Part shown: positions 3,629-37,986 of the stretch, in pieces | How the letters are laid out: each line of letters opens with the position of its first letter | Position numbering within the stretch: position 1 is the stretch's first letter | Source of the DNA: Candidatus Woesebacteria bacterium | GTDB taxonomy: Bacteria; Patescibacteriota; Microgenomatia; Woykebacterales; 2-01-FULL-43-14 | NCBI GenBank assembly: GCA_020060105.1 | Contig: JAGVAV010000025.1 | Span: forward strand, 1 to 51,368 | Reading direction: 5' to 3' | DNA length: 51,368 nt | Translations under genes and position numbers: made by a program | The notes under the pieces: model-generated | The model's database searches: none | The model's input: the letters and a program-made list of their open reading frames with translations, nothing else | What the model was told of the DNA's origin: nothing

Positions 3629-3695
3629 GGGCCAGTAGCTTAACCCATATTTAATCGGGGTCAATTGGCAGATCCATCGGCTGACGAACTTTTAA
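3629..3695 (+). pseudogene. relic tRNA-Lys 5' half with 21-nt D-arm insertion
   Basis: GGGCCAGTAGCT[TAACCCATATTTAATCGGGGT]CAATTGGCAGA matches the first 23 nt of the intact tRNA-Lys once the insert is removed; a CTTTTAA loop-like word follows. Confidence 0.8.
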
Positions 3696-3738: not shown

Positions 3739-3814
3739 GGGCCAGTAGCTCAATTGGCAGAGCAGTTGCCTCTTAAGCAATCGGTTGGAGGTTCGAGTCC
3801 TCCCTGGCTCACCA
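3739..3814 (+). tRNA. tRNA-Lys(CTT)
   Basis: Full cloverleaf, anticodon arm GTTGC-CTCTTAA-GCAAT, TTCGA loop, encoded CCA. Confidence 0.97.
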
Positions 3815-29387: not shown

Positions 29388-29463
29388 GCGGGAGTAACTC
29401 AGCTGGTAGAGTACTTGCCTTCCAAGCAAGTTGTCGCGGGTTCGAGCCCCGTCTCCCGCTCCA
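29388..29463 (+). tRNA. tRNA-Gly(TCC)
   Basis: Cloverleaf, CTTGC-CTTCCAA-GCAAG, TCCA end. Confidence 0.97.
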
Positions 29464-34238: not shown

Positions 34239-34652
34239 ATGGATCCGCACGAACCAAAGAAGCTCAAGGATCTCCTGAAACAGGACCTTAAGGGCTGGCA
34301 AATCAGATACGCTTATCTTCTTGAGATCAATCACGGGTTAATGGGGTGCTTTCCCGCTCTGATCGCGGAAACTGGGGAAGAAGTGATCGTCTTGGAAAGA
34401 CCTTTTCTAGAATCGGTTTGGAAAAGATTGGAAGCCCGGCCGGCCAAGGTCACCAGTCTTTTGGTAGTCGTTCATCCGGAAAGCGGCGTGGCCTTTAATC
34501 TGGACAGTTATGAAGGAGAACAAACTGGCCCATTGCGGATCATCCCTAAAGCGGAAATCGAAAGGCTTTGCCGGTTAGACAATCCCTTCCGTTGGAAACC
34601 CGGTACAATCGGAGGATCGAGATACGCCCATCCGCCCGACTTTAATCCCTAG
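34239..34652 (+). CDS. hypothetical protein
   Basis: 137 aa, AAGGAG RBS, terminator downstream. Confidence 0.7.
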   Translation: MDPHEPKKLKDLLKQDLKGWQIRYAYLLEINHGLMGCFPALIAETGEEVIVLERPFLESVWKRLEARPAKVTSLLVVVHPESGVAFNLDSYEGEQTGPLRIIPKAEIERLCRLDNPFRWKPGTIGGSRYAHPPDFNP

Positions 34653-34681
34653 AAACCACCAGGCTTAATCTGTCCATAACC

Positions 34682-34720
34682 GGGCCTAAGCAAAATCCAA
34701 CTGCTTAGGCCCCTTTTCTT
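34682..34720 (+). terminator. intrinsic terminator
   Basis: GGGCCTAAGCA...TGCTTAGGCCC then CTTTTCTT. Confidence 0.7.
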
Positions 34721-34788
34721 GAAAAATGAGCCTAAATAAGATATGATAAAGGCATCAACTCGCTTTACTTGGGTTTGAGGGAAAACAT

Positions 34789-34845
34789 GAAGGCCGTAGC
34801 TTAACTCTTACTTAATTAAAGTTAGTGGTAGAGCACAGAGTTATG
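34789..34845 (+). pseudogene. relic tRNA-His-like 5' half with 21-nt D-arm insertion
   Basis: GAAGGCCGTAGCT[TAACTCTTACTTAATTAAAGT]TAGTGGTAGAGCACAGAGTTATG. Without the insert it is a canonical tRNA 5' half ending TT-ATG, one change from TT-GTG. Confidence 0.7.
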
Positions 34846-34852
34846 CAGAAAT

Positions 34853-34881
34853 TTGTACTTTTACATCAGTTATGTTAGAAT
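34853..34881 (+). promoter_or_regulatory. promoter of HNH gene, TTGTAC-17-TAGAAT (extended TG)
   Basis: -35 34853-34858, -10 34876-34881, ATG at 34894 (near-leaderless). Confidence 0.6.
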
Positions 34882-34893
34882 AAAGTTACAGTC

Positions 34894-35388
34894 ATGCCAT
34901 ATATTGCCTGTACTATTTGTTCGAAAGAATTTTATATTAAACCAAGCCACCAAAGAAAAGGTTGGGGAAAGTACTGCTCAGTAAGTTGTCGGTCCAAATC
35001 CCAGTTTAAAGGTCGTTTGGTAAGTTGTTTCATTTGTGGAAAAAAGGTCTATCGTTCACCCAAGGCCTTAGCTCACTCAAAAAGCAACAAATATTTCTGT
35101 ACTAAATCCTGTCAAACCTTGTGGAGAAATCAGGAGTATGTTAACGAAAAAAATTACAACTGGAAAAACGGCGAGCATGCCTACCGGAACATATTAAAAA
35201 GAGCTGGTAAGAACCCCATATGCTTCATCTGCAAAATCACTGACGAAAGGGTCTTGGTTGCTCATCACAAAAATCACGTAAGAACTGATAATCAAGCGTC
35301 AAACTTAGTTTGGTTATGTCGGAACTGTCATTATTTAGTTCACCAGGATAAACAGCTAGATAAAATAGTCATGGAGGCGTTGGTGTAA
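34894..35388 (+). CDS. HNH endonuclease with two N-terminal Zn fingers (homing-endonuclease-like)
   Basis: 2x CxxC...CxxxC, NYNWKNG, then CFIC...AHH...DN...NLVWLCRNCH...H; stop codon lies within tRNA-His. Confidence 0.9.
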   Translation: MPYIACTICSKEFYIKPSHQRKGWGKYCSVSCRSKSQFKGRLVSCFICGKKVYRSPKALAHSKSNKYFCTKSCQTLWRNQEYVNEKNYNWKNGEHAYRNILKRAGKNPICFICKITDERVLVAHHKNHVRTDNQASNLVWLCRNCHYLVHQDKQLDKIVMEALV

Positions 35389-35447
35389 TGGTAGCACAAT
35401 AGGTTGTGGTCCTGTTAGCGGGGGTTCGATTCCCCTACGTCTCCCCA
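35373..35447 (+). tRNA. tRNA-His(GTG)
   Basis: G-1:C73, GAGGCGT/ACGTCTC acceptor, ATAGG-TTGTGGT-CCTGT, CCA. Confidence 0.95.
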
Positions 35448-35468
35448 TATTAGTTAAAGTCGCTGCCT

Positions 35469-36707
35469 ATGAAAAAAGTCTTTTTTACCAAGGTTCTTAG
35501 TCTCTTTAGTTTTCGAAATGTCACTTTCCTCGTGATCTTAATCCTTTTCTCCGTTTCCAGCTACTACCTTTGGAATAATAAAGTCCAACTTGAATCTCAG
35601 GTAAACTCTTTAAACTCCAGCTATCAGCAACTCCAGAAAAACTACCAACAATCCCTGGATCAAGACCAAATCTACCAACTGGAAAAAATCAAACTTGAGG
35701 AGTCCAAACGCCAAGTTGAAGAGGAGTATGAAAAATTAAAATCTGACGCCAGCAAAGAAAAACTGGCCAAAATCGAAGAGATCTTCCAGCTCTACCAAAG
35801 TGCTATTTCCAAGATTGACCGAAACAATAAAGTCAAGGTTGATAATACTGAGGTCACTGGGCAACTCAATGATTGGGGACAAAAGTTTCTCAAGCAGGAC
35901 TTTGGCTCCCTGAAAGAGACTATTACCCAGGCTAACACTAATCTAGACAAAAAGTATCAGGAGTACTTGGCTTCCCTCCCGCCTCCGGAACCGCCAAAAC
36001 CAGCCCCCGCTCCAGCCGCCGGCTACAGCTACCAATCTGTCTCGACAAGCCGAGGAAATTATAACGTTCATCTGATCAAGATGTCTCTTTCAGAGGTTAG
36101 AGTCAAAACCATCACCGCTAACGAAAGCGATTGCACGAATAACTGCCCGGCCAAACCTCTGGCTGATTACGTCAAGGAAAACGGGGCTTACGCCGGAATC
36201 AACGGGACATATTTTTGTCCGCCGGACTACTCCGCTTGCAGCGGAAAAACCAATTCCTATGATTTCACCATCTTTAATTCCAACTTGGGAAAGTGGATTA
36301 ACGCCCATAATCTAAACTGGAACAGCCCGGGGTTGGCGACCTTTAACGGTAGCGAAGCGCATTTTTACGCCAAAACAACCGATTACACCGGAAACACCGT
36401 CACCGCGGCAATTTCCAACTACTTTGGCCTCCTTTCGAACAATAATGTCGTGGTTAGCGAATCTGTTTTGACTTCCGCCCAAAAAGTCAAGGGGACCCGC
36501 GGGGCCCTCGGCACTGACGGAACTAATGTTTATCTTGCCACCATCTCCAATGCCACGGTCATCGATGCCGCTTACGTCATGCAGGCGCTGGGAGCAAAAG
36601 ACGCCCTAAACCTGGATGGGGGAGGCTCATCGGCGATGTATATTGGCGGTTCCTACAAAGTCGGTCCCGGCCGACTTCTTCCCAACGCCATTGTTTTAGT
36701 TAAGTAA
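35469..36707 (+). CDS. membrane-anchored coiled-coil protein with phosphodiester glycosidase (NAGPA-like) domain
   Basis: TM, coiled coil, Pro linker, AGINGTYF and ALNLDGGGSS motifs. Confidence 0.88.
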   Translation: MKKVFFTKVLSLFSFRNVTFLVILILFSVSSYYLWNNKVQLESQVNSLNSSYQQLQKNYQQSLDQDQIYQLEKIKLEESKRQVEEEYEKLKSDASKEKLAKIEEIFQLYQSAISKIDRNNKVKVDNTEVTGQLNDWGQKFLKQDFGSLKETITQANTNLDKKYQEYLASLPPPEPPKPAPAPAAGYSYQSVSTSRGNYNVHLIKMSLSEVRVKTITANESDCTNNCPAKPLADYVKENGAYAGINGTYFCPPDYSACSGKTNSYDFTIFNSNLGKWINAHNLNWNSPGLATFNGSEAHFYAKTTDYTGNTVTAAISNYFGLLSNNNVVVSESVLTSAQKVKGTRGALGTDGTNVYLATISNATVIDAAYVMQALGAKDALNLDGGGSSAMYIGGSYKVGPGRLLPNAIVLVK

Positions 36708-36748
36708 GTCTTGCTAACCAGGCAAGGAAAATAGTAAAATTAGACTTG

Positions 36749-37986
36749 ATGTATTACACTACCTCGCCCAGATTTAACCTCGTCAGCGTTATCAAAACAT
36801 TTTTAATTGTCACGACTCTCGTGGGCATCCCTATTTTCATCACCCATCTTTACAACAAGAGCATCGAGCTGGAACACGCTACCAAAAATATTTCCAAAAG
36901 CTATGAGCAACTTGAATACGATTACATGGCTATCCTGGAAACAGAGCACCTAAAAAGTTTAGAAAACATCAAATTAGCCGAAACTAAACAAAGGTTAGAA
37001 GAAGATTACCAAAACTTAAAATCTCAGGTTAGTTCCGGCAATCAAGAGAAAATCGACTCCGTCCACAAACTCTACAAAGAAGTGCTGGAAAAATTAGAAA
37101 GAAACAATAAAGTCAAAATTGACACTAAAGCCGTGAGCGATCAAGTTACCGACTGGGGCGTCAAATTCTTAAACCAAGATTACGATAACCTTCAGCAATC
37201 ACTTGCCCTAGCCAAAGAAAATCTCGATAAAAAACACCAAGAATACTTAGACTCCCTGCCAAAACCCAAACCCAAGTCCGAGCCCATCCCTGCCCCAGGC
37301 TATAATTATCAAACCGTCAGTAACAGCCGGGGACACTTTGGCGTTCATCTAGTGAAGATGCCTTTAAGTGAGGTAGCCATTAGAACCACCGCCGCCAACG
37401 AAAACGACTGCGCAAACGATTGCCCAGCCAAACCTCTGGCTGATTACGTCAAGGAAAACGGGGCTTACGCCGGAATCAACGGGACATATTTTTGTCCGCC
37501 GGACTATTCTTCCTGCAACGGCAAAACTAATTCCTACGATTTTGCTTTTTTCAACTCCAATAAAGGAAATGGTTAAATACCCAAGCTCTGCCTTGGCAAA
37601 GCGTCGGAATGGCCACCTTTCACGGCCAAGACGTTCGCTTCTACGCCAAAGGATCCGACTACAAAGGGGATAAGGTCACCGCCGCTATCTCCAACTACAT
37701 GAGCCTACTAAGCAATGGCGAAGTTCTGATTGGGGAAGAAAGCCTAACTTCCGCCCAAAAAGTCAAAGCGGTCCGAGGGGCTATCGGTACAGACGGAACC
37801 CATATCTATTTAGCGATTATTTCCGGAGCCTCCGTCCTTGACACCGCTTACGTGATGCAAACCCTTGGGGCTAAAGAGGCCCTTAACCTTGACGGCGGTG
37901 GTTCGGCAGCTCTCTACGTCAACGGCTCATACCGGGTTGGCCCCGGCCGAGTGCTTCCTAACGCGATCGTTTTAGTCAAAATCTAG
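36749..37986 (+). pseudogene. NAGPA-like paralog split by a 1-bp deletion at about 37567-37569
   Basis: Restoring one A gives FNSNKGKWLNTQALPW, aligning with FNSNLGKWINAHNLNW of the upstream paralog and joining ORFs 36746 and 37609. Confidence 0.85.

Follow-up and report, generated by a model that had tools for sequence, protein, structure and literature searches.

The subject of this analysis is a small locus on a 51,368-nucleotide (nt) contig of Candidatus Woesebacteria (JAGVAV010000025.1, C10 in our numbering; hereafter the window, meaning this whole stretch of DNA), where the gene for an HNH endonuclease runs into a tRNA-His gene and is preceded by the broken 5' half of another one. Judged from comparison with related loci, the region is likely to be a compact, free-standing homing-endonuclease cassette, with neither an integrase nor an intron, that sits in the anticodon loop of a resident tRNA-His gene and carries a replacement tRNA. 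The cassette would consist of a leader with promoter-like boxes, the HNH gene and a complete tRNA-His that supplies, with its 5' end, the last codons and the stop of the nuclease. Insertion would have taken place in the anticodon loop of the resident gene, at or just before position 37/38, leaving the resident 5' half about 50 nt upstream of the HNH start codon, where it would have decayed and acquired a 20-nt insert; the resident 3' half would have been lost here and kept in a few genomes. We infer that the nuclease recognises and cuts cassette-free tRNA-His genes, that repair would then copy the cassette in, with the tRNA halves as homology arms, and that the carried tRNA allele would escape cutting through its sequence difference. 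Since the cassette tRNA is the cell's only tRNA-His, the tRNA part could not be lost, and the nuclease gene would be free to decay. An earlier note on this DNA had proposed a cassette of this kind from the sequence of the window; comparison supports the architecture, whereas cutting and resistance belong to the inferred part.

The HNH gene and its tRNA

All positions given below are window coordinates, and all parts of the locus lie on the + strand. The host genome (G000) comprises 1.09 megabases and is 97.9% complete. Among the 48 tRNA genes of the assembly, the HNH-linked copy is the sole tRNA-His, and the HNH family is likewise present in this genome as a single copy. The tRNA has its G-1 at 35373, G1 at 35374 and an encoded CCA that extends to 35447. 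Coordinates agree with the earlier claim that the last HNH codons and the stop cover the beginning of the tRNA: tRNA-His positions -1 to +15 (16 nt) coincide with the last five codons (M-E-A-L-V) plus the stop, and the stop itself (TAA, 35386-35388) is tRNA D-loop sequence. The short repeats that had been listed are present as well, with CATG(A/G)AGGC opening the relic and the intact copy alike and AGTCATG occurring at 34890 and 35367. The description of the element as lacking both intron and integrase also stands. Between the relic and the tRNA, the HNH gene is the only open reading frame (ORF) of at least 60 amino acids, no integrase appears in the ORF list, and Rfam scans at E<=10 on 34500-35600 and at the gathering score across the whole window return tRNAs only, with no intron RNA family. 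The whole element measures about 650 nt, with about 50 nt of non-coding sequence besides the tRNA.

Linkage of the HNH family to tRNA-His

If the tRNA belongs to the element, homologs of the HNH protein should be found beside tRNA genes, and they are. A protein database search yielded 254 homologs at E<=0.001 among 256 candidates, and a collection of species genomes yielded 431 relatives, from which the best 80 of 431 loci were retrieved; the linkage counts refer to these 80. The names under which the homologs are filed indicate the Patescibacteria (candidate phyla radiation). A tRNA-His lies directly 3' of the HNH gene in 77/80. ARAGORN calls a tRNA-His(GTG) on the same strand in 75/80, and the tRNA model R1 adds two more, L045 and L066, both with a GTG anticodon and an odd T-loop. 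The three remaining loci are a masked stretch (L029), a contig that ends 4 nt past the match (L078) and one locus with no tRNA 3' of the gene (L049).

How the gene meets the tRNA varies. The overlap is exactly 15 nt, as in the window, in 25 of the 80 loci, and 9-23 nt in five others; a gap of 2-48 nt separates the HNH stop from the tRNA in 41, the HNH frame has an early stop in two (L019 and L053) and reads through into the tRNA in two, and five have no ARAGORN call. Within the overlap class, the stop is a TAA or TAG of the tRNA D-loop, and the last residues of the protein are dictated by the tRNA sequence (for example M-E-A-L-V or F-L-V-P-V-A). Where the two overlap (30/80 loci), a joint transcript cut by RNase P would lose the stop codon, a possible brake on nuclease expression. 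The earlier note had suggested such a limit; as a general rule it cannot hold, given the 41 loci that stop before their tRNA.

More distant HNH relatives are found directly before other tRNAs, namely tRNA-Ser(TGA) in five loci, tRNA-Ser(ACT) in one and tRNA-Thr(GGT) in one, which suggests, at the level of gene order, that each HNH subgroup is dedicated to one tRNA. These Ser- and Thr-linked relatives (L194, L195, L196, L200, L201, L202 and L203) score 41-69 bits against the HNH profile. Tandem HNH genes also occur: in L024 and L074, directly upstream of the HNH gene and some 170 nt from its start, lies the C-terminal portion of another HNH homolog, so that two HNH genes precede a single tRNA-His.

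A resident tRNA-His gene probably split in the anticodon loop

One trace of the proposed insertion is the broken tRNA gene in front of the cassette. Jointly, the two relic blocks in the window agree at 27/36 positions with the native tRNA-His 5' half in G001, a genome of the same family; none of 2000 intergenic shuffles reaches this value (maximum 23), and the relic reported earlier is thereby confirmed. Rfam does not call it a tRNA, even at E<=10, and of the 7 positions in its acceptor strand, 4 could pair with the 3' strand found today. It probably ends near position 33. Two details had to be revised: the insert described as 21 nt long has 20 nt, and the ATG that had been taken for a mutated anticodon sits where other loci carry the motif CCACAR, which marks the left end of the cassette. 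The TTGAAA-17-TATGAT site upstream, which our scan recovered where it had been noted, is probably the promoter of the former native tRNA-His gene.

Relics were sought in the relatives by running a tRNA-His profile against the 400 nt upstream of each HNH gene; for these counts and the motif counts below, 83 targets represent 82 distinct loci, since L003 and L041 refer to one record. In 24/82 distinct loci (25/83 targets), the profile detects a tRNA-His 5' half, covering model positions 1 to 29-40, at a distance of 46-60 nt before the ATG, and the remaining upstream matches are whole neighbouring tRNAs. As a control, 285,703 bases from the same loci, on both strands and with annotated tRNAs masked, gave one weak half-like match of 7.3 bits. 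Clean relics mostly extend through the anticodon to position 37 or 38, and the shorter ones look eroded; more decayed relics, outside this count, can be recognised by eye in L029, L045, L060, L061 and L063. The earlier note had asked whether homologs stop in a tRNA 5' end behind an upstream half: the overlap is seen in 30/80 loci and the half in 24/82, and 41/80 stop before the tRNA.

Three distinct loci (L003/L041, L067 and L039) also have a tRNA 3' part, located 9-51 nt behind the linked tRNA, and the acceptor strand of this 3' half complements the upstream relic at 7/7 positions in L067 and at 6/7 in L003. The halves in L003 and L067 therefore reveal a full form, consisting of 5' half, leader, HNH gene, new tRNA-His and 3' half, as expected for an insertion in the anticodon loop. 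No 3' half follows the tRNA in the window.

The leader has a conserved left end. CCACAR, which is complementary to the anticodon loop of tRNA-His, is found within the interval 25-70 nt before the ATG at 35/82 loci, 30 of these 35 having it at -47 to -51, and in 0/82 within a control window further upstream. It occurs also without a relic and so belongs to the cassette. Most of the homologous leaders that we inspected contain a TTTACA/TTGACA box, with which the TTTACA of the window aligns; the second promoter postulated earlier thus retains an aligned box, although the promoter scan flags no promoter in the window leader. The anticodon region of the relic and the leader can form a hairpin that is somewhat more stable within a locus than between loci (means of -7.25 and -5.9 kcal/mol, respectively; 21/5000 permutations reach the same-locus value), a modest effect.

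Hairpin-forming inserts occupy the corresponding D-loop site in relics from other genomes and of different tRNAs as well. A GC-clamped version (of the CCCCGA...TCGGGG type) lies in the D-loop of partial copies upstream of GIY-YIG ORFs in L157, L159, L161, L162 and L163 and upstream of HNH in L029, which derive from tRNAs Lys, Arg-TCT and His.

Native and linked alleles

Whether the linked tRNA was brought in or was there before can be approached by comparing alleles. G001, which is HNH-less, has an intact native tRNA-His that resembles the window relic and not the linked tRNA, so that an HNH-less relative does carry the other allele. The linked tRNA of the window agrees with that of G026, from a different family, at 65/73 positions, and with the native gene of G001 at 53/78 only; the linked tRNAs of the window and of G026 are each just 61-68% like the native allele of their own family. 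In L003, the relics match the native allele of the same-family genome G072 at 31/37 (5') and 30/39 (3') positions. Across 21 loci, relic and linked tRNA of the same locus are on average 72% alike (range 53-84%), the same as linked tRNAs across genomes; they are therefore not recent duplicates of each other. The order tRNA-Gly(TCC), tRNA-Arg(TCG), tRNA-His is conserved and has been kept in the window (at 29388, 33566 and 35374). Taken as sequence comparisons, these results indicate that the relic represents the allele of the host lineage and that the linked tRNA does not.

An empty site could not be aligned. The neighbouring gene with a NAGPA domain has homologs in 9 relatives without an adjacent tRNA-His, and alignments of the locus with G001 and G002 match in the tRNA genes alone, the spacers being too diverged. 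Contigs from two DNA runs gave tRNA-sized fragments and one 230-nt HNH piece when compared with the locus, with neither a joint nor an empty-site allele, and are uninformative either way. A listing of RNA runs contained none for 34650-35500.

Unusual features of the linked tRNAs

The linked tRNAs often depart from near-universal tRNA features. A GTTCRA T-loop is lacking in 23/74 HNH-linked tRNA-His genes, in 0/37 tRNA-His genes of HNH-less relatives and in 5/89 other tRNAs of the same 80 loci, while a D-stem 5' strand of GCTC is present in 17/74 linked and 33/37 HNH-less tRNA-His genes. The 23 non-canonical T-loops are mostly GTGCAAA/GTGCAAG-like or GAGC(A/G)TTA-like. Such differences fit, as far as sequences can tell, with linked alleles having been selected to escape nucleases that read conserved tRNA features.

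T-loops without the near-universal TTC were seen in L014, L017, L021, L022, L025, L028, L030, L032, L034, L039, L040, L045, L051, L057, L060, L066, L068, L073, L080, L081 and L083. Examples are TGCAAAT-like and AGCATTA-like, and ARAGORN misses two such genes. In L081, a TGCGAAT-like loop is found in a tRNA-Gly(GCC) too.

The HNH protein

The 164-residue protein is matched over residues 4-154 by phrog_1271, annotated as 'HNH endonuclease' (E=4e-18), and a profile built from 38 homologs picks up the HNH domains in two other proteins, IscB (E=5e-4) and a group II intron maturase (E=1.7e-3). Alignment of the 38 homologs reveals four invariant CxxC-type pairs in the two N-terminal zinc-ribbon modules and an invariant H-H...N...N...CxxH core, the invariant columns being C110, C113, H124, H125, N133, N137, N144, C145, H146 and H150. 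The AlphaFold model is confident (predicted local distance difference test, pLDDT, 85.9). Foldseek finds only weak HNH matches for it, at E 0.1-0.4: McrA (6ghc), VcaM4I (6yex) and Gme HNH (4h9d). PF01844 scores 18.7 bits in the genome-wide search, and the TRASH matches in Pfam are likewise sub-threshold. With Pfam scores of this kind and a family so divergent, membership in the HNH superfamily has to be argued from profile and motif evidence, which supports it. A search of a phage collection returned only four distant records, with identities of 27.8-35.6% (among them an HNH from a halovirus and, from a crAss-like phage, a 'putative intron-encoded HNH'), and so pointed to no phage source.

Distribution

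The HNH gene is present in 3/60 relatives and, at E<=1e-10, in 19/301 evenly drawn genomes of the class (one of them unpublished); nine of the 19 are close family members. Together with the broken HNH frames of L019 and L053, this gives the patchy presence with decayed copies that is found for free-standing homing endonuclease genes, and the family also has a constant association with one target gene, outside any intron or intein.

Other tRNA loci with the same layout

A similar arrangement is formed in the same genome by a different nuclease fold. Contig C15 (10280-10591; L153 581-892) encodes an 85-residue GIY-YIG ORF (PF01541, E=1e-14) whose last 21 nt and stop lie within a tRNA-Lys(TTT), and a partial tRNA-Lys copy with a D-loop hairpin stands 84 nt before its ATG. 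The window itself has a tRNA-Lys(CTT) at 3739-3814 with a partial 5' copy at 3629-3690, 110 nt upstream, that carries an 18-nt D-loop hairpin insert, and no ORF lies between the two. This locus, which to the earlier note looked like a decayed second example, does look decayed; it looks like a cassette of the GIY-YIG type without its nuclease gene, however, and the intact counterpart is the one on contig C15.

Homologs of the GIY-YIG protein are found in 240/301 genomes of the class (again including one unpublished genome). We surveyed the best 30 of more than 700 matches, and in 22 of these 30 a tRNA (Lys, Gly, Glu, His, Arg, Val or Tyr) overlaps the ORF end or lies within 20 nt of it, with offsets of -21, -15 and -10 recurring. 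Of 23 GIY-YIG loci examined, 16 have an upstream partial tRNA copy; its distance from the ATG is 17-84 nt, and 49-84 nt in 14 of the 16. The copies differ in form between families. At loci of the tRNA-Gly type (L165, L167, L169, L171 and L180), the copy is identical to the functional gene over positions 1-25, has its anticodon arm replaced by a GC-rich hairpin (CCCGCC-loop-GGCGGG) and resumes via the variable loop and T-stem, so that the nuclease ATG lies in the T-loop, which is the region that the abstract on the phage T4 nuclease SegB names as recognition motif (PMC2330249). At loci of the tRNA-Lys type, the copy stops after the D-arm and has a conserved hairpin in the D-loop.

We tentatively propose, at a level of confidence a little short of even, that these loci form a phylum-wide class of 'tRNA-gene replacement' homing cassettes in Patescibacteria, built on nucleases of at least two unrelated folds (zinc-ribbon HNH and GIY-YIG), each tied to one tRNA, with a family-specific break (in the anticodon loop, after the D-arm or in the T-loop) and an ORF ending in the new tRNA. 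If this is true, an arms race would explain the changes at near-universal positions (T-loop U55, D-stem) of nuclease-linked tRNAs, and tRNA genes would be, besides rRNA genes, a major habitat of selfish DNA in the reduced genomes of Patescibacteria.

Further partial copies were noticed in the same genome. On contig C13 (29743-29950; L154), the 5' half of a tRNA-Ile(TAT) is repeated perfectly over 35 nt, as far as the anticodon, at -96 from the gene, and on contig C19 (12660-12887; L155), a tRNA-Leu(TAG) has its own first 16 nt at -138, followed by a palindromic insert of about 64 nt and D-arm sequence; neither has an ORF between copy and gene. In G018, ARAGORN calls a tRNA with a four-base anticodon (cgca) directly before a tRNA-Gln(CTG) (L122, 1421-1498).

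Layout of the locus in the window

The features of the locus are collected in Table 1. Behind the tRNA-His lie tandem paralogs of a gene with a NAGPA (phosphodiester glycosidase) domain, occupying 35469-36707 and 36746-37576. There is a third piece, 37537-37980, which corresponds to the C-terminal part and contains a TAA in frame; apparently, the second copy is broken.

Table 1. Features of the tRNA-His locus, in window coordinates
Feature	Positions	Strand	Basis
Sigma-70-like promoter TTGAAA-17-TATGAT, 5' of the relic	34719..34747	+	Scan, 10/12 matches; 3 sites in the region against 1.7 expected from shuffles, weak alone
Relic of native tRNA-His, block 1: G-1, acceptor 5' strand, D-stem 5' strand, start of D-loop	34789..34805	+	14/17 identical to native tRNA-His of G001
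20-nt AT-rich, nearly palindromic insert in relic D-loop	34806..34825	+	Sequence; comparison with G001
Relic, block 2: remaining D-arm and anticodon-stem 5' strand, broken off in anticodon loop	34826..34844	+	13/19 identical to G001
Cassette leader	34845..34893	+	CAGAA, remnant of CCACAR(AA), 34846-34850; TTTACA box 34860-34865; TAAAGT 34881-34886; then ATG
HNH endonuclease gene, 164 amino acids: two N-terminal zinc-ribbon (TRASH-like) modules and C-terminal HNH domain	34894..35388	+	ORF list, alignment, profiles, model
Intact tRNA-His(GTG) with encoded G-1, C73 and CCA	35373..35447	+	ARAGORN; Rfam tRNA 57.7 bits against gathering score 29

Alternative explanations

Several observations weigh against a cassette that brings its own tRNA. 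The 3' halves are rare, being found in three distinct loci, and the usual product is a 5' half followed by the cassette. With the HNH stop preceding the tRNA in 41/80 loci, fusion of the ORF to the tRNA is dispensable for persistence of the element. G002, a genome of the same family (88% complete), has a cassette-type tRNA-His without an HNH gene or a recognisable relic: the nuclease could have been lost there, or the cassette-type allele could be native to part of the family. This allele is located at L115 1501-1772 on the minus strand, 122 nt after a tRNA-Arg and with the same CATG in front. In G017 (L004), the HNH gene is followed after 4 nt by a tRNA-His of native appearance, and no relic is visible, a layout that fits with the nuclease gene moving alone. 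A Mantel test over 21 loci gave r=0.26 for HNH identity against linked-tRNA identity and r=0.21 against relic identity and is thus not discriminating. The native set of 37 genes comes from two neighbourhoods of one class and the linked set from across the phylum, so lineage effects may inflate the contrast in T-loops and D-stems, to which the control within the same loci (84/89 canonical) is an answer in part. Finally, the Pfam HNH models stay under their cut-offs, at 16.2 bits for HNH_3 (cut-off 24.8) and 14.5 bits for HNH (cut-off 21.4).

The layout of G017 and the scarcity of 3' relics are also what would be expected if only the nuclease gene were mobile, landing immediately upstream of or within the resident tRNA-His, with repair duplicating the 5' part, so that the intact tRNA would be the resident gene or a hybrid. 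The upstream copies at the analogous GIY-YIG loci, near-identical to the downstream tRNA in the parts they share, as after a local duplication, point the same way. We nevertheless regard this as unlikely, given that relic and linked tRNA are no closer to each other (72% alike, 53-84%) than the tRNA-His genes of unrelated genomes, that relics match the allele of the host family and linked tRNAs those of other cassettes, and that L003 and L067 have matching 3' halves behind the linked tRNA. The strict linkage to tRNA-His (77/80) and the conservation of catalytic and zinc-binding columns could instead reflect a host factor that is co-transcribed with tRNA-His and serves, for example, in its processing or in repair of the locus. 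Such a role is improbable for a gene that is present in only 19/301 genomes of the class and 3/60 relatives, has broken frames in L019 and L053, is flanked by relic halves of a disrupted tRNA gene and has sister groups before tRNA-Ser and tRNA-Thr.

Two further explanations take the anticodon loop as their starting point. The nuclease might act on RNA, cleaving the anticodon loop of native tRNA-His, with the linked variant as a resistant antidote in a toxin-antidote pair; the site of disruption, the leader motif complementary to that loop and the fact that the linked tRNAs are sequence variants would all agree with this. Breakage of the resident gene at the DNA level, however, needs a DNA event, and the HNH domains related to this protein (IscB, group II maturase, McrA) are those of DNases, which leaves an RNA target with a slim chance. 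Alternatively, the halves might still yield a functional tRNA-His, through splicing of a group I or bulge-helix-bulge intron or as a split tRNA, as the insertion near the canonical 37/38 intron position, the same complementary motif and the presence of both halves in L003 and L067 would allow. Several findings speak against that reading, which we consider very improbable: no intron family is found in Rfam even at E<=10, only about 50 nt of non-coding sequence exist besides the tRNA, no 3' half stands behind the window tRNA, and the 98%-complete genome, searched by pattern for a T-arm followed by an acceptor strand that complements the relic, yielded no detached 3' half; moreover, the window relic is decayed and carries the 20-nt insert, and nucleotides around 35-40 are missing or changed in L067. 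A group I intron in particular was rejected, with no ribozyme family in the Rfam scans and no 3' exon behind the window insert. Nor does the locus fit an integrative element that targets tRNA genes, there being no recombinase among the ORFs of at least 60 amino acids between relic and tRNA and the duplicated part being the 5' half.

Significance and comparison with known systems

In essential genes, homing endonuclease genes are not known to persist other than within self-splicing introns or inteins, or else beside the gene. Breaking an essential single-copy tRNA gene while supplying a complete new one would be a third solution. The host's only tRNA-His would be tied to a selfish element, and the cassette could consequently not be deleted as a whole. 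A replacement cassette of this kind predicts horizontal replacement of tRNA alleles across deep bacterial lineages and offers an explanation for odd tRNA sequences of the organisms concerned. The layout may be common and overlooked in Patescibacteria genomes and their annotation, as ORFs ending in tRNA genes and as 'partial tRNAs', and the nucleases would constitute a natural set of small DNA-recognition modules specific for tRNA genes.

The closest parallels come from phages and from mobile elements of tRNA genes. Intronless homing in T-even phages (SegF, SegG, MobE) involves a nuclease gene beside a cut-resistant variant of its target, and it spreads through the repair of double-strand breaks, in which the flanks are co-converted. 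Such elements have intergenic positions and leave their target gene intact, whereas here the resident gene would be split and a whole new copy supplied. Islands and prophages that use an integrase to enter tRNA genes bring along a copied portion of the tRNA and thereby leave a working gene after insertion; they depend on a recombinase and duplicate the 3' end. The element described here has no recombinase, leaves a 5' half and measures about 650 nt.

Among published systems, the nearest is SegB of phage T4, a free-standing homing endonuclease of the GIY-YIG type whose gene lies in the T4 tRNA gene cluster; the site that it recognises includes a conserved T-loop motif of tRNAs, and it leads to preferred inheritance of the gene that encodes it and of neighbouring tRNA genes (PMC2330249). 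The likeness lies in a free-standing nuclease among tRNA genes that needs no intron or integrase. SegB, however, belongs to a phage genome, spreads in co-infection and is a GIY-YIG protein, while here an HNH protein is encoded on the chromosome of ultra-small bacteria and belongs to a subgroup tied to one tRNA. In the abstract on SegB there is no mention of an ORF that extends into a tRNA, of a disrupted tRNA half upstream or of a cell's sole isoacceptor being replaced.

For the Patescibacteria themselves, full-text searches, which covered neither subscription journals nor supplements, turned up no account of fusions between tRNA genes and HNH or GIY-YIG genes. A meeting report mentions introns with homing endonucleases in rRNA genes of the candidate phyla radiation (CPR), and a study of gene exchange among Patescibacteria refers once to a GIY-YIG protein, the word 'tRNA' being absent from its main text. 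Group I introns are found in the anticodon loops of bacterial tRNAs, and some carry homing endonuclease genes (PMC3984707). They share the anticodon-loop site with our element but restore the tRNA by splicing, where we find no detectable ribozyme and a second complete gene instead. In 'fractured genes', a free-standing endonuclease gene lies between the halves of a broken host gene (PMC2677866), which resembles the layout seen here; those genes are restored at the protein level by split inteins, whereas the tRNA-His gene broken by this cassette would have been abandoned and replaced.

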